A stretch of 57,934 nucleotides of DNA from an uncultured Lentisphaerales bacterium (GCA_964592855.1 CAZQKI010000004.1:1-57934); one strand, 5' to 3'; positions 3,713 to 26,492 are shown, counted from the first letter of the stretch. Translations and numbers: made by a program. Notes: generated by a model from the letters alone, not told the origin.

Positions 3713-5101
3713 ATGTCGACAACCGAAGCTCCCGCTCAAAAACCGCAACCGGTACGCTATCACGCCGGCACGCTCAGCTACACCAGGAACGGCGTGCTCA
3801 TGCTCTTCTTCTGGCTGTTGTGGGGCTACTTTGTCTATGGCTTGATGGAGATCATCCTGCCCAGCCTGCTCCCGCTGATCCTCCGGGGCCATAACGCCAC
3901 CAGCGTGCAGATCTCCTTCATCACGAGCAGCTTGAACGTCATCGGGAACATGGTCTTCAACCCGATCGTCAGCTTCGCCTCGGACCGCAGCCGCAGCCGG
4001 TTCGGGCGGCGTCGCCCGTTCATCATCTGGTCGACGCCCATGGTCGTGCTGTGCCTGGCGCTGGTTCCGTTCGGGCCTGACATCGCCCAATACCTGCAGG
4101 GGTTCGCGGCCGTGAAGAAGGTCCTCGACCTGAGCCCGATCGTGTCGCCCATTCTGTTCATCGCGGTTTTTGTGATGGGGTTCCAGGTCTTCGACACGTT
4201 CGTGGGCGCGGTCTACTACTACCTCGTGCGCGACACGGTGCCGGAGGAGTTCATCGGCCGTTTCTATGGCGTATTCCGCCTGGTCGGAGCGATCGCGCCC
4301 CTCCTCTTCAACCTCTTCATCTTCGGCCATGCGGAATCGCACATGAAGGCGATCTTCGTCGGCATCGCCGCCTTTTACGGACTGGGCATCTACCTGATGT
4401 GCTGGCGCGTGAAGGAGGGCGTGTATCCACCCCCGGAGCCATTGCCCGGGAATGCCAGCGGTCCCTGGACACGCCTGGTCGGGTCGGTCCGGCTCTACTT
4501 CGGCGATTGCTTCAGTCACCGGGTTTACTGGGCCTGTTTCCTGGCCAATGCCATGGCCTCCTGGGCCGGAGCCGCCGGCGTCTTTGCCGTCCTCTTCAAC
4601 CGCCACGAACTGGGCATTCCCCTCGCAACGCTGGGCCGGATCGGCGCCGTGAGCAGCGTCCTGACCTTGGTGATCGCCCTGCCCTGCGGCTGGCTCGCGG
4701 ACAAGCGCAGCGTGTTCAAGATCGTTCAAGTCGGCGTGCTCGTCCGGGCGGTCCTGGTGTTCACGGCCTGGATGGTTGTCCGCGATGCCAAGACACTGCT
4801 CATCATGAGCGTGTGCCTCACACTTCCCGGCATTGCGACGGGCGTGGCCCTGAGCAAGATGCAGATGGTCGTCTGGCCCCGCGAGAAATACGGTCAGTTC
4901 GGATCGGCCAACAGTGCGTTTGCCTCGCTGGGGATGATCGGCATCGCCGTTGTGGCGGCCAAGTTCGTCGACTGGATGGGCAACTACCGCGCCTACTACC
5001 TCTGGAATGCGGTCTTCAGCTTCGCCGCGGTGCCACTCTACATGTGGATGGAGATGGAGTGGAAGAAGCTGGGCGGCAAGGACCATTACACGGCGCCCTG
5101 A
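3713..5101 (+). CDS. MFS-type transporter (probable sugar/glycoside permease)
   Basis: 462-aa ORF with about 12 hydrophobic segments, a short polar N-terminus and charged inter-helix loops (SDRSRSRFGRRRP). The neighbouring genes are sugar-metabolism genes. Confidence 0.75.
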   Translation: MSTTEAPAQKPQPVRYHAGTLSYTRNGVLMLFFWLLWGYFVYGLMEIILPSLLPLILRGHNATSVQISFITSSLNVIGNMVFNPIVSFASDRSRSRFGRRRPFIIWSTPMVVLCLALVPFGPDIAQYLQGFAAVKKVLDLSPIVSPILFIAVFVMGFQVFDTFVGAVYYYLVRDTVPEEFIGRFYGVFRLVGAIAPLLFNLFIFGHAESHMKAIFVGIAAFYGLGIYLMCWRVKEGVYPPPEPLPGNASGPWTRLVGSVRLYFGDCFSHRVYWACFLANAMASWAGAAGVFAVLFNRHELGIPLATLGRIGAVSSVLTLVIALPCGWLADKRSVFKIVQVGVLVRAVLVFTAWMVVRDAKTLLIMSVCLTLPGIATGVALSKMQMVVWPREKYGQFGSANSAFASLGMIGIAVVAAKFVDWMGNYRAYYLWNAVFSFAAVPLYMWMEMEWKKLGGKDHYTAP

Positions 5102-5919
5102 GCGCCTGGCGTAGATCCGGAAGGCCGCAAATGCTGGTCGAACCAGGCGACGGCAACCGGCCAAACCTGCCGGGTCGAGGCATTTTTCGGATTGTAGACG
5201 AACCCATGGCCCGAGCCAGGGCTGGGGAGGAACTGCATGGGACGTCCGGCTCTGGCCAATGCGGCGGCAAGAAGCAACGACTGGTCATAGGGTACAGTCG
5301 CATCCTGGGGATCATGCACCAGAAGCATGGGCGCCGATGTGCCGTCCACATGCAACGCCGGCGAAGCCGCAATCCAGCTCTCCCGCTTTTCGGAAATCGG
5401 CCCGCCCATGAACGCTTCCCAATGACCCAACACCTGGCCGTAGTCCAGGGATGAAACGAGGTCATGGACGCCATGAACATCAACAACGCAGTCGACCTTG
5501 GCCGAGACGGTGTCTTCTGTGTTGTCAAGGACGCCCAGGCACGCAACCAAGTGCCCGCCCGCCGAGCTGCCCAGGGCGCCGATCCGGTTGGCGCTGATAC
5601 CGAAACGGCCCGCGTTGCGGCGGAGCCAGCGAACCGCCGATTGACAATCCACAAGCGCAGCGGGAAAGGATGCTGTCGCCGCCAACCGGTAATCGATCGT
5701 ACACGCCACGTAGCCATGCATCGAAAGACAATGGGCGTGCCACAGGAAGCTTTGCCGTTTTCCGGCATTCCATCCGCCACCATGGACCAGCAGGACCGCC
5801 GCGCCATTGCTCCGGCTCGTGTCGGGAACGTAGATGTCCGTCATCAGGTCCTGGCCTCCCGGGCTGGCGAAACACTCCGTGAAGGTTGGATCGGGCGCCG
5901 GTTTATCGAAGTCATGCAT
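5086..5919 (-). CDS. Alpha/beta-hydrolase (esterase/lipase-like)
   Basis: LLVHGGGWNAG is an HGGG oxyanion-hole motif. GSSAGGHL is a GxSxG nucleophile elbow. A C-terminal GSGHGF supplies the candidate His. Its 3' end overlaps the convergent MFS gene by 16 nt. Confidence 0.78.
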   Translation of the reverse strand: MHDFDKPAPDPTFTECFASPGGQDLMTDIYVPDTSRSNGAAVLLVHGGGWNAGKRQSFLWHAHCLSMHGYVACTIDYRLAATASFPAALVDCQSAVRWLRRNAGRFGISANRIGALGSSAGGHLVACLGVLDNTEDTVSAKVDCVVDVHGVHDLVSSLDYGQVLGHWEAFMGGPISEKRESWIAASPALHVDGTSAPMLLVHDPQDATVPYDQSLLLAAALARAGRPMQFLPSPGSGHGFVYNPKNASTRQVWPVAVAWFDQHLRPSGSTPGAQGAV

Positions 5920-6150
5920 AGTGTCACATCGTCTGTTTCTGGAATTTGAAACTCGTTGTCATTGCCAACAGTGTAATATCGCATGCGCTTCCAGATCAAG
6001 ATTGCGATTATGGCGCTTTGGCATCATCGGAACTGCCAGTCGCCCCCTGATGCGCGGAAAGGTAATGGCGCAGTTACCGGGATGTGCGATTTCATCGCAT
6101 GGACGAGGCATTTGATTTCTTGCGTGTTGCAACAAATCAATCTGCGGGGT

Positions 6151-6448
6151 TCACCACGGAGACGCGGAGTCACGGAGTCCGGGAGGGAAGGTTCACGCAA
6201 CTTCAGGCTTGGCTGACCGGCTGTTGCCGTTGAAGCAAACGGAGATGCTGCCAAGCCTGAAATTGCGTGAACACCTGGCAGGGAGCACGATCCATCGCTC
6301 ATACGCGCAGACCATTCCCGCCGACTCAATAGGGTGTTGCGTGAAGGCGCAGCCGCTGCATGCCATGCGCCGGGTCAGGCCTGGATACGCTGAAAGCGGA
6401 TGCGCCTTCACGCAACCTCTCCTCCATGTCTCCGTGCCTCCGTGGTGA
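6151..6448. repeat. Nested inverted-repeat (palindromic) element in a 680-bp non-coding gap
   Basis: The outer arms are 6151-6177 (TCACCACGGAGACGCGGAGTCACGGAG) and 6422-6448 (its imperfect reverse complement). Inner hairpin 1 pairs 6191-6213 with 6250-6272 (23 nt, 1 mismatch). Inner hairpin 2 pairs 6337-6351 with 6401-6415 (15 nt perfect, extendable to about 21). Both inner stems are based on TTGCGTGAA. Confidence 0.85.
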
Positions 6449-6600
6449 CGTTGTCGCAATGACCGAGGTTGATGGCGTGCCTTCACGGTTCGCGACCTGC
6501 TTTTCATGCTCGCATTACGCACACCCCGGTCACTGACCGCTGACGCGCAGAAAGAATGTCGGAGATTGACATGACCCTCGCGTTTTGACATTTTTCACCT

Positions 6601-9057
6601 ATGAACAATTTCAAGTCCCGCGTGACAGCCGGCAGCCTGTTCCTGGCCACCGCCATTCTCCCCGCCTCCGCCATCACGCTGGTCAAGGACGGCCAACCCG
6701 CCGCGACGATCGTAGTCTCGAAGGCCGCCTTGAACGCGACGGCCCCCAAGCCGCGCCGCGGCCTCAAGATCGAGCCGGCCCAGAAAGCCCGCCTCGCCGC
6801 GGAGGAGCTGCAGCGGGTCATCGAAAAAATGAGCGGTGCCCGGCTCCCCATCGTCGGCGAGGACGACGCCGTCCAGGGTCCCGTCGTGCTGGTGGGCTCC
6901 AGCCGGAAGACCGATCCCCTCAAGCTCGACATCCCCGCAGGCCTCACGACCGAGCGCAAGGAGGAAGGCTACCTCATTTCCGCCAAAGGCAACACCCTCG
7001 TCCTTGCCGGCAACGACGCGGGGCCCTACCAGGGAACGTTCTTCGCCGTCAGCGAATTCCTGAACCGTCAGGGCGTCCGCTGGTTCATGCCCGGCGCATT
7101 CGGCGAGTGCGTGCCGAAACGGGCGTCAATCGATCAGCCGGATCTCCTGTACCGCGACAAACCCGATTTCCCAGTCCGGAGCTGGAACGGGAACCTCGCC
7201 CCCGAACTTCGGGAAGACGACACCCTCTGGCGGCTCCACAACAAGCTCGTGATCAACGAATCGGACATCATCGCCATCCCCGGGGACGGCTATCTCCGGA
7301 AGTACATGCCCGACAAGGAGCTGATCGAGACGCACCCCGAGTATTTCGCCAAGCGGCTCGACGGAACGCCCGACCCGCACATGGTCAGCCTGAGCAACCC
7401 CGAGACGCCCCGACTCGTGGCCGAGAAGGTCAAGGCCAAGATCGCCGAGGAGCGGCTCAAGGATCCGACCTTCAACTCGCTGGGATTCGCCCCCGATGAC
7501 GGCATGCCCATCGACCTCTCCAAGGAGACGATGGCCCTGAACCAGGGATTCGCCGACCTGTGCGGCCGCGAAGGCGTGATCACCGAACGCTCGATCAGCG
7601 AAGAGTGGTTCGGCTTCATCAACAAAGTCGCGGAGGAAGTCGTGAAGGACTACCCCGATTTCATCCTCACCAGCAACGGCTACGCCAACCGGACCTTCCC
7701 CCCCGAGGGCGTCGCGCTCCACCCCAACCTGGGCATCATGTTCGCCGCCATCTGGGCCGACCTGCTCCATGCCTATGACGACCCCCGGAGCTGGCAGCAG
7801 GTGATGCAGGGCCAGATGCTCCAGCGCTGGGCCCAGCTCTGCCCGCGGGTCTTCGTCTACAACTACAATTTTCCGATGCTTGTAAACTGCCTCACCCCCT
7901 TGCCGTTGACCCGCAAGATCGCCCGCAACACGCCTTTGATGAAGAAGTGGGGCGTCTTCGGTTTCGAGGACGAGCAGACCTTCTCCTGGATGGCCCACGG
8001 CATCACGGCGTTCTACCTCCGCGCCAAGCTCTACTGGCATGCCGACGACGATGCACGGGCCATTCTCGACGACTATTTCACCGTCTGGTACGGACCGGCC
8101 GCCAAGCCCTCGCAGGCCTACTGGGAGGCCATCGAGGAGGCGCTCGAAAGCACACCCCTGCTGGGCCACGAGGATCGCATCCTCCCGTATGTCTACTCGG
8201 ACGCCCTCCTGGCGTCGATGGAAAAGAGCCAGGTCGAAGCGGAGGCACTTGCGACCGATGAGCCGTTCAAGACGCGCGTCCGCGTGGACCGCCTGATCCT
8301 CGATCATCTGAGAGGATACCTGGCGATGAACCGCGCCGAATTCACGGGCGAGTACGCCGCGGCGATCAAGCAGGCCGACCTCATGTTCCAGCAGCGCGAA
8401 CAGATCAGCGCGATCAGCGGCTTCTTCCACGTCCCCGAGAGCAAGGACCCGAGGCGGCGCTATTTCGCCGGGTCGCACTACTGGAACCTGACCCAGCGCA
8501 GGGAGTTCTATCAGAAGATGCTCGACAGGACAACCGGCACAGCGGGCGACCTGGTCGCCCGTTCAGAACGCAATGTGCCTTTCCGGCTGGACGACGCCGA
8601 CCTGGGCCGCATCGGCCGCTGGTACGACACGGACTTCGACCGTTCCGCTTGGCGGAAGATCGACACCGCCACGCCTTTTTCCCATCAGGGCGACGGCATG
8701 CGCGACGCACGCGGCGTCCCCTACGTCGGCTACATGTGGTACATCTTCGAGCTGGACGTGCCGCGGAAGGCCATCGGCAAACCGGTGCAGGCGTATGCCC
8801 CGGTCGTCACGACTGAAGCGTGGGTCTGGTGCAACGGCGAGTACGTCGGGCACCGCCCGTATTTCGAGGCCTATACCCGTCCCCAGCCGATCGATTTCGA
8901 TGTCACCCGGCAGGTGAAGGCCGGCAAGAACATCATCGCCGTGCGCGTCAACACAAGCGCCAGCCGCATCCAGGAGGCCGAAGGATTTCAAGGGCCCTTG
9001 TTCCTCTACTCGCCCAAGCCTCCGCCACCGCCGGCGGTGGCGACGCCCACACCGTAA
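6601..9057 (+). CDS. Secreted DUF4838-like glycan-active protein with a C-terminal GH2-type sugar-binding (jelly-roll) domain
   Basis: It has a signal peptide (MNNFKSRVTAGSLFLATAILPASA). ITLVKDGQPAATIVV...AAEELQRVIEKMSGARLPIV and GTFFAVSEFLNRQGVRWFMPG resemble the DUF4838 N-terminal region. The C-terminus (WYIFELDVP...VWCNGEYVGHR...FDVTRQVKAGKNIIAVRV) resembles the GH2 N-terminal sugar-binding domain. Confidence 0.65.
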   Translation: MNNFKSRVTAGSLFLATAILPASAITLVKDGQPAATIVVSKAALNATAPKPRRGLKIEPAQKARLAAEELQRVIEKMSGARLPIVGEDDAVQGPVVLVGSSRKTDPLKLDIPAGLTTERKEEGYLISAKGNTLVLAGNDAGPYQGTFFAVSEFLNRQGVRWFMPGAFGECVPKRASIDQPDLLYRDKPDFPVRSWNGNLAPELREDDTLWRLHNKLVINESDIIAIPGDGYLRKYMPDKELIETHPEYFAKRLDGTPDPHMVSLSNPETPRLVAEKVKAKIAEERLKDPTFNSLGFAPDDGMPIDLSKETMALNQGFADLCGREGVITERSISEEWFGFINKVAEEVVKDYPDFILTSNGYANRTFPPEGVALHPNLGIMFAAIWADLLHAYDDPRSWQQVMQGQMLQRWAQLCPRVFVYNYNFPMLVNCLTPLPLTRKIARNTPLMKKWGVFGFEDEQTFSWMAHGITAFYLRAKLYWHADDDARAILDDYFTVWYGPAAKPSQAYWEAIEEALESTPLLGHEDRILPYVYSDALLASMEKSQVEAEALATDEPFKTRVRVDRLILDHLRGYLAMNRAEFTGEYAAAIKQADLMFQQREQISAISGFFHVPESKDPRRRYFAGSHYWNLTQRREFYQKMLDRTTGTAGDLVARSERNVPFRLDDADLGRIGRWYDTDFDRSAWRKIDTATPFSHQGDGMRDARGVPYVGYMWYIFELDVPRKAIGKPVQAYAPVVTTEAWVWCNGEYVGHRPYFEAYTRPQPIDFDVTRQVKAGKNIIAVRVNTSASRIQEAEGFQGPLFLYSPKPPPPPAVATPTP

Positions 9058-16818: not shown

Positions 16819-19608
16819 ATGTCGTCCGCATCTTCACACTCGTCAACCGAGCCTGCCTTGCCGCCCTGGCAGGCGCAGACGGTCTGGGTTTCGTCGGACG
16901 CCTCCGGCGCGCTGCACATGGCGGCCTATCCCAAACTCCGCCCGGCGCAGGCCCGCTTTCTGCTGACCAACGACGCCCTTCAGCTCGCGGATCTGCTCGA
17001 GGCAAGCGCGGAGGCGGCCACGTGGTCGGTCATCGACCTGGCGGAGCTGCATCGTCTGCTGCACCCCGAGTCGGCCTCCGAAAACCTGGCCGACCTGCTT
17101 CCCGACGCCGCAGCCGACGCGCCGCCGGAAACCCGGCTTTGGCAGCTCTGGCTGCAATGCGAGGCCGATCTCGGTGCCCTGCCCCTCTGGACGCTGGAGA
17201 TGGTGGCCGCCGCCTGCCAGGAATTTGACGATCCCGCAACCGGCAAGCTGTTCCGTCTGTTTGCGGATCAGGCCGAGCGTCAGAAGAATGCCGCCCGCAA
17301 CTGGACCGCGACCTTCCTCCCCACCGTCAAACGTGTCGAACGGCCGGAACTTCCCGACCTGACCGACTGCACCGCCGTCGACGCCGGCGCGGCCGTCGCG
17401 CTCCTGGACGAAGGCGGAGCCCTCGCGCGCTGCGTTTCCGGCTATGAACCGCGTCCCGGACAGTTGATGATGGTACGCGCCGTGGTCGAGGCCATCAATG
17501 CCGGCAAGCATCTCGTGGTCGAGGCAGGAACCGGCGTCGGCAAGAGCCTGGGCTACCTCCTCCCCGCCGCGCTCTGGGCGCGCTTGAACGATGTCCCGGT
17601 GGTCATCAGCACCAACACCCGGAACTTGCAGACGCAACTCATCGAGAAGGATCTCCCCGCCGTGCAGCGGATGCTGGCGGACAGCACACCCGCGGCGGCC
17701 GATGGCCAGCCGCCCCGGCCATTGCGCACCGCCCTCATCAAGGGCCGCAGCAACTACCTGTGTCTGCGCCGGCTCGCCAACCAGATGGAGCAGGCCCAGT
17801 TTGACCTGCAACGGCGGGAGCTCCGCCAATTCGCCAGCGTCCTCTGCTGGGCGGCGCGCACCCCCGACGGCGACCTCGACACGCTGGCCAGCGGCGCCGG
17901 AGTCGACCAGGGGATTGCGGCGCAGCTCAATTCGCATGCCGACGACTGTTCCGGTCACGCCTGCAGGCTCTATCGGCGATGCTTCATCCAGAAGGCGCGC
18001 GAGAAGGCCCTGCGCGCCGATCTCATCATCGCGAACCACTCGCTGGTTTTCACCGAGCTCTCCGCAACATCGCCCATCGCCCTGCCGAAGCATGCGCAGA
18101 TCATCTTCGACGAGGCCCACAACCTCGAAGAGGCCGCCACGCGCCACTTCTCGATCGAGTGGTCGCCTTCACGCCTCAACACCTTCACGCGACGGCTGGT
18201 CACGGGACGAGGCAAGCGCCGGCGGGGCATGCTGGAAAATCTCCGCCGCCGCGTCAACAGCGGCGCGCTGCAACAGAACGAGGCGGTCTTCAACCCCCTC
18301 ATGCTGTTGATCGACGAGTCGATGGAAGGCGTCGATGCCCTCCGCAAGACCGGCACCGCGCTCTGCCGCAAGCTCCACGGCCTGCTCGCGACCGACGAGG
18401 AACCCTTGCGCTACCGGTTCGCTGCAGACCCCGCGAATCTCAAGGCGCCGCCCCCCGCGCCCACGGCAGTCTGGCAGGCCATCCGGGCGGCGCAAGCCGA
18501 ATTTCAAACGGTCGTTGAAGCTCAGATTGCGCGCCTCCAGACGATGTCCGACCTGGTTCGGCAGGGAAGCGAAGACGAACTCAACCTCCTGGCCGAGGAG
18601 ACCTCCGACATCGCCGGCGCCATGCAATCGCTGGGCGAACTCCTGCAGGATGTCACCATCGTCCTTTCCGGCCAGGACGAGGAGTCCGTCTTCTGGGTGC
18701 AGCGCGCACGCGGCCCCGAGCCGCTCGCCGAAGCGTGGGCGGCGCCGCTCAAGGTCGGACCCCGTCTGGCGAAGCACTTGTACGAAGCCAGGCGGAGCGT
18801 GATCTTCTGCTCCGCGACGTTGAGTGTCGGTGGACGCTTCACCTACATCGGCGAACGGCTGGGGCTGGACCTGATCGCCGCCGACCGCTTCCTCACCTGC
18901 ATCGCCCCGAGTCCCTTCGACTACGTGCGCCAATGCACCCTGCTGGTGCCCGCCTATCTGCCCGAACCGAATGCCATGGACCGCTCCTACGTTGCGGAAC
19001 TGGCCAATCTCATCCGCCAGGTAGCAACCCGTATGGAGGGGCGCACCCTCTGTCTGTTCACCAGCTACGACATGCTCCGCCAGTGCGCGCATCTGATTGA
19101 ACCTGAACTGCAAGAACACGGCATCCGCCTGCTGGTGCACGGCGAAAGCGGCTCACGCGACCTCATCCTGCGCACGTTCCGCAAGGGCGAGCGCTGCGTG
19201 CTGCTCGGCACACACTCCTTCTGGGAGGGGGTGGACGTCGTGGGCGACGCCCTTTCCTGCGTGATTCTCGCACGCCTCCCCTTCGCTTCGCCCAACGACC
19301 CCGTGGTCAGCGCCCGCTGCGAACAGATCGACAACGAAGGGCAAAGCGCCTTTCGTTCGCTCTCCCTCCCCGCGGCCGTACTGCGCCTGCGCCAGGGCTT
19401 CGGACGCCTGATCCGCCACCGCAGCGATCACGGGTTGGTGATCGTCGCGGACACGCGCATCCTGACGAAGAACTACGGCGGCACCTTCCGCAGGAGCCTC
19501 CCCTGTCCCACGCTCGCCTGCGACGACAGCGACGGCTTCATGGCGCGTGTGGCATCCTGCACCGAAGCCATCAACGCCCTTTCATCGTCAAAGCGCGGCG
19601 ACGTTTAG
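16819..19608 (+). CDS. dinG: DinG/XPD-family Fe-S ATP-dependent DNA helicase with an N-terminal extension of about 200 aa
   Basis: GYEPRPGQLMMVRAV...VVEAGTGVGKSLGYLLPA is the Walker A region. DEAHNLEEA is the DEAH box. Cys pattern LCLRRL...DDCSGHACRLYRRC (C-X4-C-X5-C) matches the DinG Fe-S cluster spacing. C-terminal helicase motifs are LGTHSFWEGVD and RLRQGFGRLIRHRSDHG. Confidence 0.9.
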   Translation: MSSASSHSSTEPALPPWQAQTVWVSSDASGALHMAAYPKLRPAQARFLLTNDALQLADLLEASAEAATWSVIDLAELHRLLHPESASENLADLLPDAAADAPPETRLWQLWLQCEADLGALPLWTLEMVAAACQEFDDPATGKLFRLFADQAERQKNAARNWTATFLPTVKRVERPELPDLTDCTAVDAGAAVALLDEGGALARCVSGYEPRPGQLMMVRAVVEAINAGKHLVVEAGTGVGKSLGYLLPAALWARLNDVPVVISTNTRNLQTQLIEKDLPAVQRMLADSTPAAADGQPPRPLRTALIKGRSNYLCLRRLANQMEQAQFDLQRRELRQFASVLCWAARTPDGDLDTLASGAGVDQGIAAQLNSHADDCSGHACRLYRRCFIQKAREKALRADLIIANHSLVFTELSATSPIALPKHAQIIFDEAHNLEEAATRHFSIEWSPSRLNTFTRRLVTGRGKRRRGMLENLRRRVNSGALQQNEAVFNPLMLLIDESMEGVDALRKTGTALCRKLHGLLATDEEPLRYRFAADPANLKAPPPAPTAVWQAIRAAQAEFQTVVEAQIARLQTMSDLVRQGSEDELNLLAEETSDIAGAMQSLGELLQDVTIVLSGQDEESVFWVQRARGPEPLAEAWAAPLKVGPRLAKHLYEARRSVIFCSATLSVGGRFTYIGERLGLDLIAADRFLTCIAPSPFDYVRQCTLLVPAYLPEPNAMDRSYVAELANLIRQVATRMEGRTLCLFTSYDMLRQCAHLIEPELQEHGIRLLVHGESGSRDLILRTFRKGERCVLLGTHSFWEGVDVVGDALSCVILARLPFASPNDPVVSARCEQIDNEGQSAFRSLSLPAAVLRLRQGFGRLIRHRSDHGLVIVADTRILTKNYGGTFRRSLPCPTLACDDSDGFMARVASCTEAINALSSSKRGDV

Positions 19609-20426
19609 CGGGCCTGGCGCAGGGCATCCAGGTCTGCGGGCATCAGCAGATGGACGCCGGTCCGTACCGCGAGCTCGCGAGCCTGCTCGATTGCACCGAC
19701 GATTTCGCGGGGATGATGGGCGTCGGAATTGATGATGGCGCTGGCCCCGACATCGGCGACGATTTCCCAGAAGGGCTCCCACGGATACATCGGGCGCTCG
19801 CCCTGAGGCGTTTGCATCGGCGGCTTGCGAAAGCCGTAGGCGTTGATTTCCAGCGGCACGTTGGCGGCCCGCGCGGCCTGGGCGATGTCGCGCGCGATTG
19901 CCGCCGTCTCGGCATCCCAAACATCGTAGAAGAAACCGAACACATCGGGATGGGCGACAAAGGCAAACAGCCCCGTGCCGATGCTGGCGACGACATAGTC
20001 CGCATAGGCCCGGAGCAGTTTGGGATCATTCGCCCGCTGGCGTGAGAAGGTGGAACACCACACCCCATCGAGGAGAAACGAGTGGGCGCCGAGCATGAGA
20101 TAGTCCATCTGCTGGCGCCCCAGCAGTTCGTCCGCGAAGTAGTCCTTGAACTCCGGCAGGTACTCGCATTCCAGACCGCAGTAGATCTTCATGGCCGGGT
20201 AGGCCCGGCGGGCCTTCTCGACCGCCTCGCGGTAGGCGGGGAGTTCGTCGGACGCCATGCGGACCGCGATCCAGCGTCCGTCGGGGGTCGGCATGTGGTC
20301 GCTGAAGCCCAGGGTGGTCAGCCCGGCGTCGTCGGCATTGTGCGCATAGTCGAGCGCGTCGCCGGCGGCATGCTTGCAACGGAAGGTGTGAGTGTGCCAG
20401 TTGGCGGTAAATGCGGGTTCGGTCAT
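19605..20426 (-). CDS. PHP-family phosphoesterase (HisJ-type histidinol-phosphatase-like)
   Basis: MTEPAFTANWHTHTFRCKHAAGDALDYAHNADDAGLTTLGFSDHMP, with later AHPD and NSDAHHP metal-ligand motifs. The start was moved to Met22 of the track ORF (ATG at 20426-20424) because the extension reads through the TCGA array. Confidence 0.82.
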   Translation of the reverse strand: MTEPAFTANWHTHTFRCKHAAGDALDYAHNADDAGLTTLGFSDHMPTPDGRWIAVRMASDELPAYREAVEKARRAYPAMKIYCGLECEYLPEFKDYFADELLGRQQMDYLMLGAHSFLLDGVWCSTFSRQRANDPKLLRAYADYVVASIGTGLFAFVAHPDVFGFFYDVWDAETAAIARDIAQAARAANVPLEINAYGFRKPPMQTPQGERPMYPWEPFWEIVADVGASAIINSDAHHPREIVGAIEQARELAVRTGVHLLMPADLDALRQAR

Positions 20427-20446
20427 AGGATGTGTGGTTCCAGATG

Positions 20447-20513
20447 GATTCGACTCGAATCGACGGCAATCGATAGCAGTCGAATGCAATCGAAGGCAAT
20501 CGATCTAGTCGTG
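20447..20513. repeat. Phased TCGA array A (10-bp period)
   Basis: TCGA cores begin at 20450, 20455, 20460, 20470, 20480, 20490 and 20500, with a degenerate TCGT at 20510. The units read TCGACGGCAA / TCGATAGCAG / TCGAATGCAA / TCGAAGGCAA. A 15-bp palindrome, GATTCGACTCGAATC, lies at 20447-20461. The array fills the gap between the SNF2 stop (20505) and the PHP start (20426). Confidence 0.95.
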
Positions 20514-23408
20514 TCTGATCGCCTCCCGCAGGCCGGCCAGCAGCCGCTCGACCGCTGCATCGCACGCCGCGATGGCGTCGTCGGCGCTCGATGGCGCGTC
20601 GGCCCGCAGGCCGAGCAGCACGGGGAGCGCCTCGGCCGGCACGAGGCCGCGCGGCACGAGCGCGGTCTCGACCACGGCGTCGGAGACGGGCTTGTCGGAC
20701 GCGGCTTCGCCCAGCGCCAGGATCGCACCGCCCTTCAGCAGCGCCTCGCAGGCAGCCTTCAGCGGCGCGAGCGATTCGGCTGCAAAACCGTTGGCGCGCA
20801 GCAGGCGCGCCATGCGCAGGCGGCGGTCGGCCTCGTCGACCAGAGGCGCGGCGGCGGCGCGACGCTTCGCCTGCTCGGCGGCCGCGTCGTCGGCCATGCC
20901 GGCCTCGCGGTGCAAGACCTCCGGCGCCGGGCCGGTGAAGCGCAGCACGCCGGCCGCAACCAGCCGCCGGATGGCGGCGTAGGTGGCTTCGTCCAGCACC
21001 TCGACCGCACCCGCGGCATCCGGCGCCACCTGGGCCACAATCCCGGCGCGCGCACCCTCGTCCAGTCCGCGGACGACGGCGACCAGCACGGACGGGTGTC
21101 CGTCCCCGGCACTCGCGTGACGCGCCACCATCCTGACTTGCCCGGCGTGGCGCGCCATCAGATCCTCGCAGAAGGCGCGGGCCGGGTCGGCGGGCCGCCT
21201 GGGCTTCTCGGGCGGCATGGCCATGCCTTTCGGACTCGGCTCGTTGCCGCCCACCATCGACGCAATGCGTTCGAGCATGGCGCGCCGTTCGCCAGCCGTG
21301 TGAATGGCGTCCACACCCGCCGCGCCATCCAGGACGCCGTCCGCCAGCCGCCGCTTGAGCGCCAGCTTGTCGAGCATGGCGTGCTCGATGCAGTTTTCGC
21401 TCACCAGGTTGACCACGCGGACGGCGCGCGTCTGGTGCTTGCGCCAGGCGCGCGCGATGCGCTGTTCGAGGCGTGCCGGGTTCCAAGGCAGGTCGAGGTT
21501 GATGACGACATTGGCGCATTGCAGGTTGAGTCCCGTGGCGCCGGCGTCCGTGGAGATGAAGAGGCGGCAGTCGGGATCGTTCTTGAAGCGGTTGATCTCA
21601 TCGCGCCGCTGCTTCTGCGGCACCGAACCGGTGTGCCAGGCGAAGCCGACGCCCAGAGTCTCCGCTTCGTCGCGCACCAACTGCTGCATCCGCTCCCACT
21701 CGGAGAAGAGGATGATCTTGCTGTCGCCCTCCGCCAGGATCGGCTCGAGCAGGGCGCGCAGTTCCGTCAGCTTGGGACAGATGCGGCAGTCGGGATCGAG
21801 GATGAAGGGGGTGTCGCAGAGCATGCGCATGCAGGCCAGCCACTTCTGCAGCTTGTCCCACTCGTCGCGCGTCAGGGGGCGGCGCTTGGCCATGGCGACC
21901 AGCTTGGCAACGCGCGTCTCGTACTCCTCGTAGCGCAGGCGCTGCTCGGGATCGAGCGGTACGAAGTGGTTGCGCACGGTGCGCTCGGGCAGTTGGTCCT
22001 CAACCTCGGACTTGCGGCGGCGCAGCATCACGGGACGCAGGCGGCGGTGCAGTTCAGCGAGGTTGCACACGCCCACCGGGCGGCCCCTCTCGTCGAGGTC
22101 GTAGAACTCGCGGTTGAAGCGGAAAAGGGGGCCGAACAGGTCGCGATTCAGGAACTCGACGATGGAGTAGACTTCGTCGATGCGGTTCTCCAGCGGCGTG
22201 CCCGTGAGCACGAAGGCGTAGGGCGCAGCAAGGCGTTTGATCTGCCGCGCGGTGCGGGTGGTCCAGTTCTTGATACGCTGGGCCTCGTCCAGGATGACCA
22301 CCTCCGGGGCGAGCAGCGCGTTGATCTCCTCGACATCGTCGCGCACCTGCTCGTAGTTGCAGATATGGAAGAAGGTCTCCGTGCGGTATTGCCGCAGCCG
22401 CGCGGCGCGGGGGCCCCAGACCAGTTCGAGGCCCAGGTCGCAGAAGCGCCGGATCTGCTCCTCCCATTCGCTCTTCAGCGAGGCCGGGGTGACGACCAGC
22501 ACGCGCCGAACGCCGCGCACCTGGCGCAGCAGTTCGCAGGCGGCGATGGCCTGGATGGTCTTGCCGAGTCCCATCTCGTCGGCCAGCAGCACCCGTTCGC
22601 CAAAAGCCAGGTGGAGCATGCCGTCGTGCTGGTAGGGATAGAGCTTCGTCGACAGCACATCGAGCGTGCGCTTGCCGGCCTGCACGTCCTGCAGGAAGTC
22701 GGCCCGCGCCTGCTCGCGGTCGCGCTCGCGGCGGCGGCTGGCGGTCCAGTCCAGCACGTCGCGGGAGATGCGGATCTGGCGGGCGACGGCACCGGCCGCC
22801 GCCGCAGCGCGCTGCAGTGCCGGAATTGCGTCGACCGGGTCGGCCAGCAGCAGGCCGTTGGCGTCGAAGAAGGGCGCCAGCGCCTGACGCACGCGCGTGC
22901 CCGGCCGAGGGCAGGCGGGAATGCCTGCCCCACCTTGCGGCGCCGACGCCTTGCGCGCGTGCGCGCTCGGGCCGTGCGGCCAGGAGACGCGGACGCGCGG
23001 CGCCCCTTGCAGGCGGGAGAGGAAGACCTCGGCGAAGGGCGAGCCCGCCTCCCCGGCGCGCAGGAAAGCGAGTTTCTTCCCGCGGCGCAGGCGCTCCAGC
23101 GTGGCTTCGATGTGCTTGCAGGTGCCGAGGCCGCTGTGACGGAAATCGGTGCAGGTGCAGGAGTTTTCCGGCGCCAGGAGGGCGCGGATCTCGACCTGAT
23201 AGCGTCGGCCGCTGCCGCCGGAGGTCACGTCGAAATCGCCGTGGAAACCGTCAGGGGCGGGCACCGACGGCGCGATGGTCATCTCCTCGGTCTGCGCGCG
23301 GTGGCGGCGCAGGGCGATTTCGTCGGCGTCGGTGGTGTTCCATCCTTGGAGCTTGGGGGGCTTGGGCGGGGTGGCGGATGTGGCGCGCTTATGAGAAGTA
23401 GTGGGCAT
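20505..23408 (-). CDS. SWIM zinc-finger / SNF2-family (Swi2/Snf2) ATPase with an Ala-rich C-terminal extension of about 300 aa
   Basis: SWIM motif: CTCTDFRHSGLGTCKH. SNF2 motifs: LADEMGLGKTIQAIA, VILDEAQRIKN, LTGTPLENR, STDAGATGLNLQ, NPARLEQRIARAWRKHQ. The start was moved to the ATG at 23408-23406 (MPTTSHK) because the track extension reads through array B1. Confidence 0.9.
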   Translation of the reverse strand: MPTTSHKRATSATPPKPPKLQGWNTTDADEIALRRHRAQTEEMTIAPSVPAPDGFHGDFDVTSGGSGRRYQVEIRALLAPENSCTCTDFRHSGLGTCKHIEATLERLRRGKKLAFLRAGEAGSPFAEVFLSRLQGAPRVRVSWPHGPSAHARKASAPQGGAGIPACPRPGTRVRQALAPFFDANGLLLADPVDAIPALQRAAAAAGAVARQIRISRDVLDWTASRRRERDREQARADFLQDVQAGKRTLDVLSTKLYPYQHDGMLHLAFGERVLLADEMGLGKTIQAIAACELLRQVRGVRRVLVVTPASLKSEWEEQIRRFCDLGLELVWGPRAARLRQYRTETFFHICNYEQVRDDVEEINALLAPEVVILDEAQRIKNWTTRTARQIKRLAAPYAFVLTGTPLENRIDEVYSIVEFLNRDLFGPLFRFNREFYDLDERGRPVGVCNLAELHRRLRPVMLRRRKSEVEDQLPERTVRNHFVPLDPEQRLRYEEYETRVAKLVAMAKRRPLTRDEWDKLQKWLACMRMLCDTPFILDPDCRICPKLTELRALLEPILAEGDSKIILFSEWERMQQLVRDEAETLGVGFAWHTGSVPQKQRRDEINRFKNDPDCRLFISTDAGATGLNLQCANVVINLDLPWNPARLEQRIARAWRKHQTRAVRVVNLVSENCIEHAMLDKLALKRRLADGVLDGAAGVDAIHTAGERRAMLERIASMVGGNEPSPKGMAMPPEKPRRPADPARAFCEDLMARHAGQVRMVARHASAGDGHPSVLVAVVRGLDEGARAGIVAQVAPDAAGAVEVLDEATYAAIRRLVAAGVLRFTGPAPEVLHREAGMADDAAAEQAKRRAAAAPLVDEADRRLRMARLLRANGFAAESLAPLKAACEALLKGGAILALGEAASDKPVSDAVVETALVPRGLVPAEALPVLLGLRADAPSSADDAIAACDAAVERLLAGLREAIRHD

Positions 23409-23420
23409 GGGTTCTACCTT

Positions 23421-23484
23421 TCGATGGGATTGGCGGAGATCGACCCCAGTCGACCCCTGTCGACACCAGTCGACTACAGTCAAT
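23421..23484. repeat. Phased TCGA array B1 (10-bp period)
   Basis: TCGA cores begin at 23421, 23440, 23450, 23460 and 23470, with a degenerate TCAA at 23480. The units read TCGACCCCAG / TCGACCCCTG / TCGACACCAG / TCGACTACAG. The array starts 13 nt upstream of the SNF2 ATG. Confidence 0.93.
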
Positions 23485-23547
23485 GGGTGGATCGGCTACC
23501 AGGAGGAGCGGCAGGAGGAGGTGGCGGAGGGTGGGCACGGGTGGATT

Positions 23548-23601
23548 TCGACTAGACTCGACTTGAATCGACTGGAGTCGACTCGAGTCGATTGGTGTCG
23601 A
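23548..23601. repeat. Phased TCGA array B2 (10-bp period)
   Basis: TCGA cores begin at 23548, 23558, 23568, 23578, 23583, 23588 and 23598. The units read TCGACTAGAC / TCGACTTGAA / TCGACTGGAG / TCGACTCGAG / TCGATTGGTG / TCGACATCGC. The array overlaps the last ~17 codons and the stop of the 23552-24328 gene. Confidence 0.93.
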
Positions 23602-24328
23602 CATCGCGCAGGCCGTCGCATTCGGGGTAGTTGGTGCAGCCCCAGAACTGGCTCCCGGCGCGGGGGCCTTTGCGGGCGTGGCGCAGGCGCATGGGGGCGT
23701 GGCACTTGGGGCAGGCGGGGACGTCTTTGGCGGCAGGTTCGGCACGGGCTTCGGCACGCTGGCGGGTCATCCGCTCCTTGAAGCCACCATCGGCCAGGAA
23801 GCGGTCGCCCTGGGCGTCGAGTTGCTTGCGGATCAGGAAGTCGGCGCGGTCGCAGAGGCGCACGAGTGCGTTGGCAAGGACGGTGGGGTCGTCGGACTTG
23901 AGCCACTTATCGAACAGTGCCCGGTTGGCAGCAACGGTGCGGGAGAAGTTGTGGATGATGTCCGCGCCGGGAGGCGTGCGTTCGAGGCGGATGGTCTTGA
24001 TGGCGAGGCTGTCGGGGTCTTCGTCGCGCCAGGGAAACTGGCCGGAGAGGTTGATGAAGTCCTCGTAGTCGAGCTGGAGTTCGACCAGGCTGGCATGGGC
24101 GACGTCAGTGAGCTGGATCTCGGTCTGCGTGGAGGTGGCGGCGCGCTCGGAGCCCTCGGCCAGATTCTGGCGGCCGGAGCGCGCGGCCTGCGTCATTTGT
24201 TCGGTCTGGCGGGTGCTGGCGATGTACTTCCGGCAGAACTCGACCGTGGCGTAGTAGATGATCGTGGCCAGCATGAAGGTGTCGAGCCGACGATAGCCAC
24301 CACGCTTGGCGAAGAGAGGGGACGACAT
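23552..24328 (-). CDS. Four-helix-bundle protein (TIGR02436-like, with suffix domain) fused to a topoisomerase-type C4 zinc ribbon
   Basis: The N-terminus (YRRLDTFMLATIIYYATVEFCRKY...SGRQNLAEGSER) resembles the family known as the four helix bundle / 23S rRNA intervening-sequence protein. The C-terminus (CPKCHAPMRLRHARKGPRAGSQFWGCTNYPECDG) is a zf-C4_Topoisom-type ribbon. A strong AAGGAG Shine-Dalgarno lies 9 nt before the ATG at 24328. Confidence 0.75.
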   Translation of the reverse strand: MSSPLFAKRGGYRRLDTFMLATIIYYATVEFCRKYIASTRQTEQMTQAARSGRQNLAEGSERAATSTQTEIQLTDVAHASLVELQLDYEDFINLSGQFPWRDEDPDSLAIKTIRLERTPPGADIIHNFSRTVAANRALFDKWLKSDDPTVLANALVRLCDRADFLIRKQLDAQGDRFLADGGFKERMTRQRAEARAEPAAKDVPACPKCHAPMRLRHARKGPRAGSQFWGCTNYPECDGLRDVDTNRLESTPVDSSRV

Positions 24329-24364
24329 TATAGGACTCCTTGAGTTGTCTACTTTCCCGACGAG

Positions 24365-24410
24365 ATCGATTCGAGTCGACTCGTATCGATTCGAGTCGAC
24401 TCGAGTCGAT
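24365..24410. repeat. Phased TCGA array C (5-bp period; 20-bp tandem unit; perfect palindromes)
   Basis: TCGA cores begin at 24366, 24371, 24376, 24386, 24391, 24396, 24401 and 24406, with TCGT at 24381. ATCGATTCGAGTCGACTCG(T/A) is repeated in tandem (24365-24384 and 24385-24404). TCGAGTCGACTCGA at 24391-24404 is a perfect 14-bp palindrome. The array lies between the alaS stop (24420) and the 4HB start (24328). Confidence 0.95.
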
Positions 24411-24419
24411 CAATTAAAC

Positions 24420-26207
24420 CTATTCCAGCACCGCCTTGATGCGCCGCACGCCGGCGCTGGAGCTCTCCTCCTTCTGGATCTTGAACTTGCCCAGCTCGCC
24501 GGTGGTTTTGGCGTGCGGCCCGCCGCAGACCTCCTTTGAGAAGTCGCCGGCGCTGTAGACCTTCACCTGCTCGCCATATTTGGCGGCGAACAGGGCCATG
24601 GCGCCTTTCTCGCGAGCCTCTTCGATGGTCATGGTCTCCAGGGTCACCGGCAGGTTGCGGCCGATCTGATCATTGACGATGCGTTCGACCTCGGCCAGTT
24701 GTTCGGGCGTCATCTTCTCAGGATGCGTGAAATCGAACCGCAGCCGCTCGGGGGTGATGTTCGACCCCTTCTGCTGGACGTGCTCGCCGAGCACGAGCTG
24801 CAGGGCCTTCTGCAGCAGGTGGGTGGCGGTGTGGAGGCGCGTGGTCGTTTCGCCGGCATCGGCCAAGCCGCCCTTGAACGTCGCGTCGCCCTGCTTGGAG
24901 AGCTCCTGGTGCTTCTTGAACGCCTCTTCGTAGCCGGCGCGGTCGACCGCCAGCCCCTGCTCGGCAGCCAGTTCTTCGGTCATCTCCAGCGGGAAACCGT
25001 AGGTGTCGTAGAGCTTGAAGGCGGTGCGTCCGGAGAGCTGCGTCTGCCCATGCTGCTTGAGGGCGGCGGAGATCTTGTCGAACTCCCTCTGGCCGGCCGT
25101 CAGCGTCTTCTCGAAACGCTCCTCCTCGGCGGCGAGTTCGGCGAAGATAAGTTCGCGCTTCTCCTTCAGCTCGGGATAGACATGGCCATAGTTGTCGACG
25201 ACCACCTCGGCCAGGGAGCGGGCGAAGCCGGCGCCGATGCCGAGGAGCTTGGCGTAGCGGACGGCGCGGCGGATCAGGCGCCGGAGCACGTAGTTGGCGC
25301 CGAGGTTGCCGGGCTTAACCCCGCCTTTGGGATCGCCGAGGATGAAGGTGGCGGTACGCAGGTGGTCGGCGATGATCCGTTCGGCGCGCTGGCGAAGCGC
25401 GGAATCTTCGGGCAGTGTCGTGGAAAGGGCCGCGATTTTCGCCATCAGCGGCGCGAAGAGTTCCGTCTCGAAGACCGACGCACGCCCCTGGAGCATGCAG
25501 ATGGTCCGCTCAACGCCCATGCCGGTATCCACGTTGGCCTGGTTCAGCGGCTCGTAGCGTCCATCGGCCGTCTTGTTGTACTGCATGAAGACGTCGTTCC
25601 AGATCTCCAGGTACTTGCCGCAGCGGCAGCCCGGCCGGCAGCCGGGGCCGCAGGCGTCCTTGAGCGTGTCGACGAACATCTCGGTGTCGGGGCCGCAGGG
25701 GCCGGTCTGGCCGGCGGGGCCCCACCAGTTGTCGTCCTTCGGCAGGGCATGGATGCGCTCGGCAGGGATGCCGAGCGAGGCCCAGATGGTGATCGACTTC
25801 TCGTCGCGGGGGATGTCGCCTTCCCCTTCGAAGACCGTCACGCTGAGGCGGGCCGGATCGAAGCCGAGGTAAGCCTTCGAGGTGAGGAACTCATAGGACC
25901 AGGCAATCGCCTCATCCTTGAAGTAGTCGCCGAGCGACCAGTTGCCCAGCATCTCGAAGAAGGTGAGGTGCGAATTGTCGCCGACGGCATCGATGTCGCC
26001 CGTCCGGACGCATTTCTGCACGTCAGTCAGGCGACGTCCCGCGGGATGGGGTTCGCCCAGCAGATAGGGGACAAGCGGATGCATGCCCGCCGTGGTGAAG
26101 AGCACGGTGGGGTCGTTCTCGGGGATCAGCGAAGCGCCCGAGATGATCTTATGTCCCTTGGATTCAAAGAAGCGGAGATACTTTTCACGGAGTTGGTCGG
26201 CAGTCAT
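24420..26207 (-). CDS. alaS: Alanine--tRNA ligase, short form (595 aa; lacks the C-Ala domain and part of the editing region)
   Basis: MTADQLREKYLRFFESKGHKIISGASLIPENDPTVLFTTAGM..., FFEMLGNWSLGDYFK, GPCGPDTE, EIWNDVFMQYN and DTGMGVERT mark the class II AlaRS core. HTATHLLQ (HxxxH) and CGGPH (CxxxH) are the editing-site motifs. The protein ends about 25 aa after CGGPH. Confidence 0.9.
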   Translation of the reverse strand: MTADQLREKYLRFFESKGHKIISGASLIPENDPTVLFTTAGMHPLVPYLLGEPHPAGRRLTDVQKCVRTGDIDAVGDNSHLTFFEMLGNWSLGDYFKDEAIAWSYEFLTSKAYLGFDPARLSVTVFEGEGDIPRDEKSITIWASLGIPAERIHALPKDDNWWGPAGQTGPCGPDTEMFVDTLKDACGPGCRPGCRCGKYLEIWNDVFMQYNKTADGRYEPLNQANVDTGMGVERTICMLQGRASVFETELFAPLMAKIAALSTTLPEDSALRQRAERIIADHLRTATFILGDPKGGVKPGNLGANYVLRRLIRRAVRYAKLLGIGAGFARSLAEVVVDNYGHVYPELKEKRELIFAELAAEEERFEKTLTAGQREFDKISAALKQHGQTQLSGRTAFKLYDTYGFPLEMTEELAAEQGLAVDRAGYEEAFKKHQELSKQGDATFKGGLADAGETTTRLHTATHLLQKALQLVLGEHVQQKGSNITPERLRFDFTHPEKMTPEQLAEVERIVNDQIGRNLPVTLETMTIEEAREKGAMALFAAKYGEQVKVYSAGDFSKEVCGGPHAKTTGELGKFKIQKEESSSAGVRRIKAVLE

Positions 26208-26412
26208 ATGCAGTCTTTGTCCTTTGATTGAGCCAGCAGTTTAGCGACTTGGACGGATCGATGCAACGAGAAGCGGCGGGCGAGAAGCGGCGGGCGGGGG
26301 TAATGGGTCAGTGAGATGGGTGCGCGATAGAAGTGCATTTGGCATGAGCAATGACCTGCCAGGGTGAAGCACAAAAAGGGATGCATCCGGTTTGCTCGTG
26401 TGATAGTTTCAT

Positions 26413-26492
26413 CAGGAACTCAGGAAATCAGGAAGGTTGGTCGTGCGCGCCGACCATGCGCTTGATCGTGGCACATGTTCCTGCTTTCCTCG
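26413..26492. repeat. Short-period hairpin repeat (8-mer CAGGAAnT units)
   Basis: CAGGAACTCAGGAAATCAGGAAGG (26413-26436) faces the imperfect inverted partner GTTCCTGCTTTCCTCG (26477-26492). An inner stem pairs TGGTCG (26438-26443) with CGACCA (26451-26456). Confidence 0.7.

Follow-up and report, generated by a model that had tools for sequence, protein, structure and literature searches.

Clade-specific phased repeats flank a four-helix-bundle/zinc-ribbon gene that neighbors a SWIM-like SNF2 ATPase in an uncultured Lentisphaerales bacterium

Two adjacent genes in the genome of an uncultured Lentisphaerales bacterium (GCA_964592855.1, CAZQKI010000004.1:1-57934; this whole stretch of 57,934 nucleotides is the window analyzed here) are bracketed on both sides, and separated from each other, by phased arrays of TCGA, which raises the question of whether the arrays mark a two-gene unit or belong to only one of the genes. 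The first gene (23552..24328, minus strand), delimited by its open reading frame (ORF), hidden Markov models and an AlphaFold2 (AF2) model, encodes a 258-aa protein that joins a four-helix bundle (4HB), a suffix domain and a C4 zinc ribbon (ZnR) of the topoisomerase I (Top1) type. The second (20505..23408, minus strand, with its ATG at 23408 and its stop at 20505) encodes a 967-aa protein with a SWIM-like motif and an SNF2 ATPase core. Both lengths were reproduced by independent gene calls on metagenome contigs that carry an identical locus. The first-pass annotation had likened the pair to a self-contained DNA-tracking unit that was inserted together with cis sites of its own. We find instead that, very probably, the arrays belong to the 4HB gene and its pairing with SNF2 is no conserved module.

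The two genes lie in a co-directional cluster, alaS-4HB-SNF2-PHP, whose intergenic gaps of 91, 143 and 78 bp are all filled by arrays. Array R1 (24366..24409), a near-perfect palindrome in the 91-bp alaS-4HB gap, has eight TCGA cores at steps of 5 or 10 bp; it starts 10 nt after the alaS stop codon, ends ~38 nt ahead of the 4HB start codon and has a predicted RNA hairpin of -33.4 kcal/mol (z = -4.6). R2 (23548..23601), with seven cores mainly in 10-bp phase, overlaps the 3' end of the 4HB gene, stop codon included. The start of R1 recurs in direct orientation as the first ~25 nt of R2, whose predicted hairpin has z = -5.0. R3 (23440..23473), ~30 nt upstream of the SNF2 start, consists of four GTCGAC units in exact 10-bp phase with G-rich spacers and has weak hairpin potential (z = -1.8). 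R4 (20450..20503), in the 78-bp SNF2-PHP gap, contains seven cores in ATCGATTGCC-type units of 10-bp phase and ends ~20 nt ahead of the PHP start codon (hairpin z = -4.2). The pattern TCGA-N6-TCGA-N6-TCGA has 13 matches in the 57.9 kb, every one within R1-R4, versus a mean of 0.02 in dinucleotide-preserving shuffles, none of which reached 13 in 100 trials. A motif-free period-10 detector likewise picked out only these four places in the whole window. The bracketing and splitting of the gene pair by TCGA arrays, as first described, is thus genuine, and the arrays are non-random cis elements tied to this locus. An Rfam search with the palindromic R1 returned only spurious sub-threshold miRNA matches.

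Comparison with homologous loci separates the two genes. An SNF2 of the type seen in the window is found at none of ~88 other loci of 4HB-ZnR homologs (80 genome loci, described below, plus L006-L008 and L098-L101). Conversely, tblastn detects no 4HB gene, alaS or PHP gene at any of the nine SNF2-related loci from a metagenome scan, which yielded six near-full-length homologs at 45-77% identity. Flanking arrays are absent from all five SNF2 homolog loci with readable flanks (L089-L093), and the neighbors of these homologs vary by locus: serS; AbiEii with a TOTE primase-helicase; Abi_2; UDG and Usp; or an AAA ATPase. When SNF2 was searched by tblastn across all gathered loci, matches were confined to the window's own lineage.

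The closest 4HB homologs on long contigs tell the same story from the other side, as all four have the order array-gene-array without SNF2. The nearest (P0002, L098/L099, 87% identity) reads recA-alaS-array-4HB-array followed by a small ORF, with neither SNF2 nor R3; the next (P0003, L006, 81%) has the same recA-alaS-array-4HB-array order followed by a convergent flavodoxin gene. The remaining two sit elsewhere, as ABC ATPase-array-4HB-array-422-aa ORF (P0005, L100, 78%) and MR_MLE-array-4HB-array-473-aa ORF-array (P0018, L007, 76%). Counterparts of the downstream array R2 are present in L006, L007, L098 and L100. The alanyl-tRNA synthetases (AlaRS) of L006 and L098 (597 aa) are 86% identical to that of the window, close to the 81-87% identity of the adjacent 4HB proteins, so the 4HB gene has been inherited behind alaS at roughly the rate of a host gene. 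Such matching rates fit a stable, selected 4HB gene. SNF2, judging from these gene orders, came later and in this lineage alone; it is a neighbor of the 4HB gene and no conserved partner.

These data bear directly on the possibility that SWIM-SNF2 and 4HB-ZnR form a dedicated DNA-tracking or defense module that arrived in a single insertion, cis sites included, a reading that we now regard as very improbable. It can draw on the arrays that bracket both genes in this lineage, where R3 and R4 occur only with SNF2 present, on the AbiEii/TOTE or Abi_2 genes that adjoin some SNF2 homologs, and on the enrichment of the 4HB family in type I restriction-modification (R-M) and CRISPR operons. However, co-occurrence had been set beforehand as the criterion for a module, and the genes do not co-occur elsewhere (0 of ~88 and 0 of 9 loci); moreover, the clade inherited the alaS-4HB arrangement from its ancestor (L006, L098), but not SNF2. 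No named defense system matches either, in line with the first-pass annotation: PADLOC gave no match for the 258-aa protein and only partial, generic SNF2 matches limited to the core for the ATPase, and against the NCBIfam models for DISARM DrmD, Zorya ZorD and Dpd DpdE the SNF2 protein scores 111-133 bits, where the curated cut-offs are 500-1500. As a conserved system, the two-gene module is largely refuted by these sequence comparisons. A functional coupling of SNF2 and 4HB peculiar to this lineage may nonetheless exist, because R3 and R4 bracket SNF2; bracketing arrays alone are no ground for annotating SNF2 as part of a new defense system.

The arrays are characteristic of the 4HB-ZnR family. 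When genomes were scanned with a 29-homolog alignment, more than 592 relatives were retrieved, and we kept 80 loci at 38-48% identity, whose hosts span the PVC phyla, Bacteroidales, Desulfobacterota, Chloroflexota, Armatimonadota, KSB1 and others. Flanks were scored at 82 loci, including those of Verrucomicrobiota, Planctomycetota, Lentisphaerota, Kiritimatiellota, Bacteroidales, Desulfobacterota and Chloroflexota, with a scan of periods 6-13 and a motif-free score of invariant columns. A detector limited to period 10 had missed most of the family's arrays, as the repeats of other clades have periods of 8 or 9. On reading the flanks, short phased repeats are seen on one or both sides of most 4HB genes. 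Their cores and periods fall into classes: TCGA with period 9 or 10; TTGAC three to four times and then GTCAA three times, period 9; GATCnGnC, period 9; ATAACG or ACGT, period 8; AACGTTnCT, period 9; and CGATATC, period 8. In many phyla the family members lie within co-directional gene clusters, with a clade-specific core of 4-7 bp recurring every 8, 9 or 10 bp in their flanks. An exact 4-mer at three phased positions (periods 8-10) is present in at least one flank of 62 of the 82 loci, and at least four invariant columns over four consecutive units are found in 82 of 164 flanks, versus 12 of 198 random control windows from the same loci. The arrays stop 10-50 nt ahead of start codons.

Motif class and period track the clade of the protein and not the phylum of the host. 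Two paralogs in a single metagenome-assembled genome, ~88% identical in coding sequence, have arrays that share only cores and phase, their spacers having diverged. At L019 and L020, a second, ZnR-less paralog beside a TTGAC-class gene has a different flanking short repeat (judged by eye, unscored). Some arrays are perfect or near-perfect tandem repeats, as in L081 (7883-7959, 9 x CCGACTGAT, 9 bp), L009 (8738-8812, 8 x TCGAGAGCCC, 10 bp) and L055 (1347-1439, 12 copies of an 8-bp unit), and therefore point to turnover or recent expansion by slippage; copy number may possibly vary. Additional arrays of the same motif lie past the next gene, as R4 does, in L007, L033, L025 and L077, and the neighbors they bracket are mutually unrelated. 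More generally, no conserved third partner gene was found downstream of the 4HB genes, where the neighbors are again unrelated to one another.

Several individual loci add to this picture of variety. In L077, GATCCGAC-type arrays occupy the gaps between three RAMP-superfamily, type III CRISPR-like ORFs (856-878 and 4333-4355), and another lies inside the middle RAMP ORF (2818-2840, by our own ORF calls); all are upstream of the 4HB-ZnR gene. L007 has a second IVP-family gene (5982-6779, 265 aa) two genes upstream of its 4HB-ZnR gene, encoding two tandem four-helix bundles without a zinc ribbon; it is preceded at 5680-5870 by three copies of a ~65-bp repeat with CTCGA motifs, an architecture unlike that of the phased arrays. 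In Prevotella nigrescens FDAARGOS_1486 (L103; NZ_CP082843.1 260483-261172), the 229-aa protein WP_004367454.1 has the suffix domain, with a coiled-coil tail in place of the zinc ribbon, and its gene has CTAG-containing repeats after the stop codon. This strain is cultured and completely sequenced and is a possible experimental handle.

What kind of protein accompanies these repeats? The domain calls of the first-pass annotation hold for both proteins by Pfam and NCBIfam profile scores, with SWIM below its Pfam cut-off. In the 258-aa protein, the TIGR04258 suffix domain scores 56.3 bits (cut-off 40; residues 148-196), the TIGR02436 four-helix bundle 24.9 bits (cut-off 24) and Zn_ribbon_Top1 (PF01396) 41.5 bits (cut-off 32), while PF05635, at 24.2 bits, remains under its gathering score of 33.8. 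The C4 pattern CPKC...C...C spans residues 206-237, and its cysteines are invariant in the 29-homolog alignment. A family motif, GxxRxxxSxxxNxxE, has been described (PMC3936711); in the alignment, S51, N55 and E58 of this motif are invariant, Q44 and Q47 stand at the G and R positions, R50 and R53 close by are also invariant, and helices 2-3 carry many invariant polar residues. In the AF2 model (mean predicted local distance difference test score, pLDDT, 88.6), residues 16-196 form a long helical bundle, followed by a basic linker and a zinc ribbon of three strands; the tail encoded by array R2 (residues 247-258, about the last 12) has pLDDT <50 and is predicted to be disordered. Foldseek equates the bundle with 2GSC (probability 1.0, target-normalized TM-score 0.68) and also with 2RLD of the S23/IVP family, each entry being matched through several of its chains (A-E), and equates the ribbon with the GRF zinc finger of NEIL3. 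A profile search of PDB sequences retrieved 2GSC and the zinc fingers of TopoIII-alpha and Topo I. The ribbon is basic and akin to the nucleic-acid-binding fingers of Top1, TopoIII and GRF.

The family is large and shows a preference for certain surroundings. The 4HB-ZnR protein has 2,517 word-index homologs, and subfamily clusters at 50% identity number 709 with E <=1e-30 and 3,539 with E <=1e-10. Type I R-M operons hold 14 of the 80 4HB loci, an enrichment, in the orders hsdS-4HB-hsdR (L010, L014, L019, L028) and hsdR-4HB-hsdM (L046, L054, L062, L064, L073, L079, L080). The slot taken by the 4HB gene in these operons is fixed across host phyla, and the N-termini of HsdR and HsdM are recognizably conserved; such a fixed slot in hosts of different phyla suggests that R-M operon and 4HB gene travel together. 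One 4HB locus lies among RAMP/type III CRISPR genes. Searches for the family in mobile elements gave no match in phage records, one weak match in viral contigs and one partial family member in plasmids.

We favor a model in which the protein binds its own repeats. The 258-aa protein would oligomerize through its Avd/IVP-type helical bundle, and its basic zinc ribbons would attach cooperatively to the phased repeats, whether these are duplex DNA or folded single strands. The arrays would then be the cognate operators or iterons of the protein. Through binding at arrays near start codons the protein would regulate its own gene, and it would also control read-through into the flanking cistrons or their expression. 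Because arrays occupy all three gaps of alaS-4HB-SNF2-PHP, we propose that SNF2 and PHP may come under the same control, SNF2 having no dedicated partnership. In this view the locus brings together two independent elements, a repeat-flanked 4HB-suffix-ZnR gene and a stand-alone SWIM-SNF2 acquired only in this lineage. That the 4HB protein binds the arrays and regulates flanking genes is, on the sequence evidence, plausible at somewhat short of an even chance; for the combined model, in which the arrays belong to the 4HB gene and serve repeat binding or regulation, we put the chances at about even. What the data show is that gene and repeat are tightly coupled in a clade-specific way, that arrays abut start and stop codons, and that the zinc ribbon is of a nucleic-acid-binding type.

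Several considerations weigh against this model. The argument that protein and repeat are cognate draws on their co-inheritance, a pattern that a mobile unit would leave as well, and about half of the flanks miss the strict array criterion. A search for sigma-70-like promoters at the arrays found none. Sites spaced 8 or 9 bp apart come to lie on different faces of B-DNA, and the relatives of the zinc ribbon are known chiefly as binders of single-stranded DNA. Simple autorepression does not account for the arrays downstream of the gene. Finally, many arrays are self-complementary, with R1, R2 and R4 folding strongly, so a role as RNA or as a hairpin is equally compatible with the data.

This last point leads to a rival explanation in which it is the folded single strand of an array that functions, as an RNA hairpin or a DNA cruciform. 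The arrays could be intercistronic elements for processing or stability, comparable to the 23S rRNA intervening sequences with a related ORF inside, or attC-like recombination sites that make the gene and its arrays a mobile cassette. We consider this explanation rather unlikely, although it accounts for a good deal: R1, R2 and R4 have z-scores of -4.2 to -5.0, 28-30% of family flanks have z < -2 versus 5% of controls, many arrays consist of a direct and then an inverted half (for example, TTGAC three times and then GTCAA three times), the array upstream of a gene repeats the downstream one in direct orientation, and relatives of the zinc ribbon bind single-stranded DNA. IVP-family genes have also been reported in rRNA intervening sequences and between cas genes, such as cmr3 and cmr2 (PMC3936711). 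Against it, R3 and a large number of other arrays contain direct repeats only and can hardly pair (L081, with nine CCGACTGAT units, is one of them), the median flank z is about -1, and the spacers that were read in L023 and L025 are not complementary in register (this was no formal covariation test). For a cassette in particular, the four-gene cluster contains no recombinase gene and the position behind alaS is stably inherited; paralogs in the same genome are only ~88% identical, which argues against recent transposition.

The cores themselves suggest another possibility: each array may group short palindromes of the kind that is methylated or restricted (TCGA, GATC, ACGT, GATATC, CTAG), and the protein may read their modification state, much as SeqA does at GATC clusters, with a link to R-M operons. 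Most cores are indeed 4-6-bp palindromes spaced about one helical turn apart, and 14 of the 80 loci are in type I R-M operons, but we give this reading very little credence: the TTGAC class is not palindromic, type I enzymes recognize bipartite sites and not 4-mers, and Pfam annotation of the window neighbors reveals no methyltransferase at the locus.

The SNF2 protein is best considered in its own right. Pfam places SNF2-rel_dom at residues 272-509 (147.3 bits) and Helicase_C at 550-657 (82.8 bits), each over its cut-off, whereas the SWIM model scores a sub-threshold 16.8 bits (cut-off 19.6); a CxCx10CxH motif (CTCTDFRHSGLGTCKH) is present at residues 84-99 and is kept in the 46%-identical homolog L091. 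The alanine-rich C-terminal extension, first put at ~300 aa, is there, at ~263 aa, beginning near LERIASMVGG at residue 712, with 24% Ala; its alanine richness, on the other hand, turns out to reflect GC content. A 925-aa homolog from a 39%-GC organism aligns colinearly with the protein (910 residues, 46% identity), in a pairwise alignment that spans the SWIM motif and most of the extension, up to residue 929 of 967. Because of this colinearity the extension is, by alignment, a conserved family domain, and because the equivalent region of the low-GC homolog has only 8% Ala, the composition is a GC-content effect. The extension has no Pfam model, and a search with the alanine-rich C-terminus alone, swamped by low-complexity words, gave two fragments only. 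SNF2 homologs in low-GC organisms (L090 2892-7223; L091 7047-7562) adjoin an AbiEii toxin, a TOTE-type AEP primase-helicase and an Abi_2 gene. The SWIM-SNF2 family itself may be a stand-alone accessory or defense-island gene.

The surroundings of the pair are housekeeping-like, in agreement with the first description. Upstream is alaS (24420..26207, minus strand, co-directional), which encodes a 595-aa AlaRS with Pfam tRNA-synt_2c and tRNA_SAD matches; downstream are a co-directional PHP-domain gene (19605..20426, minus strand, Pfam PHP), called as a 273-aa gene in L001, and a DinG-like helicase. The AlaRS is short, at 595-597 aa in the window, L006 (6155-7948) and L098 (6150-7943), and in each case is followed by an array and the 4HB gene. 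No C-Ala/DHHA1 domain was detected in it, the tRNA_SAD match stopping at residue 590 of 595, five residues before the end. An ancestral insertion of the 4HB gene may possibly have truncated alaS. We considered whether the SNF2 C-terminus could be the missing C-Ala and rejected the idea, since SNF2 homologs align along the length of the extension and AlaRS is equally short in relatives without SNF2. A 1,157-aa open frame antisense to SNF2 (20082-23555, plus strand) was taken as a high-GC artifact and not a gene. Rfam gives no rRNA match in 20300-24600, and the 4HB gene lies between protein-coding genes and not in 23S rRNA. Elsewhere in the window there are two further repeats of 8-bp period, at 26404-26430 and 6157-6190 (3 x TCAGGAA, CACGGAGT-like units), whose motif is unrelated to the TCGA arrays.

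A full-text search of the literature found no description of repeats flanking these 4HB genes. To our knowledge, the 4HB/IVP superfamily, which is large and occurs in rRNA, CRISPR and R-M loci, has no known function outside of diversity-generating retroelements. The 4HB arrays are thus apparently undescribed, and there is a sizeable chance that they represent something more distinct than repeat-operator regulators or genes embedded in the manner of intervening sequences. We tentatively suggest, as a possibility rated below even, that the repeat-flanked 4HB-suffix-ZnR gene is an undescribed and widespread self-contained unit, which co-evolves with its own clade-specific repeats of 8-10-bp period, embeds in operons (preferably type I R-M and CRISPR), acts either by operon control through cooperative repeat binding or as a recombinase-less cassette, and here has its repeats extended around SNF2. 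If the flanking repeats are ligands, the family gains its first concrete and cheaply testable hypothesis, with TCGA, TTGAC, GATCnGnC and ATAACG as the predicted specificity pairs, and defense-island biology would gain a new type of regulator or cassette.

How does this locus compare with known systems? DISARM DrmD, Zorya ZorD, Dpd DpdE and BREX BrxH share with the window's SNF2 protein an ATPase core, to which the matches are restricted, but none of the partner genes of those systems is near the window's SNF2. The omega protein of pSM19035, ParG/parH and ParR/parC have arrays of 4-11-bp units, direct and inverted, beside the gene of the binding protein; their fold is ribbon-helix-helix, unlike the 4HB protein, and the 4HB locus is chromosomal, operon-embedded and without a partition ATPase. 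The proteins of 23S rRNA intervening sequences (S23p) and the Avd proteins of diversity-generating retroelements (PF05635, TIGR02436; 2GSC, 2RLD) have a homologous N-terminal bundle, of whose motif the S-x3-N-x2-E part is kept, and IVP genes are likewise small insertions between other genes with self-complementary flanks. The 4HB gene, however, is not in rRNA, has no reverse transcriptase nearby and adds a suffix domain and a zinc ribbon, and its flanks are phased short-repeat arrays rather than one long stem.

The closest parallel in cis architecture is RptR of Escherichia coli (PDB 9R2Z), a repressor whose gene lies in type I R-M islands. This small helical protein forms dimers, which occupy three 9-bp repeats that adjoin one another and have a palindromic core of 6 bp. 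The repeats lie 31-58 bp ahead of the start codon of RptR itself, and the Hill coefficient of binding is 3.4 (PMC12255303). Both are small helical proteins in defense or R-M operons with a strong type I R-M association, and both have, immediately ahead of their own start codon, ~9-bp direct repeats that adjoin one another and share a short palindromic core, the likeness on the 4HB side being one of cis architecture only. RptR binds cooperatively to multiple copies, and by analogy the same would be predicted of the 4HB protein. The parallel does not extend to homology, as 9R2Z is absent from the PDB profile search (E up to 1) and from the 50 Foldseek matches listed. Unlike RptR, the window protein is larger (258 aa) and combines an IVP/Avd-type bundle with a C4 zinc ribbon, and the 4HB arrays stand on both sides of the gene, sometimes past the next gene as well, with a motif and period that vary by clade.

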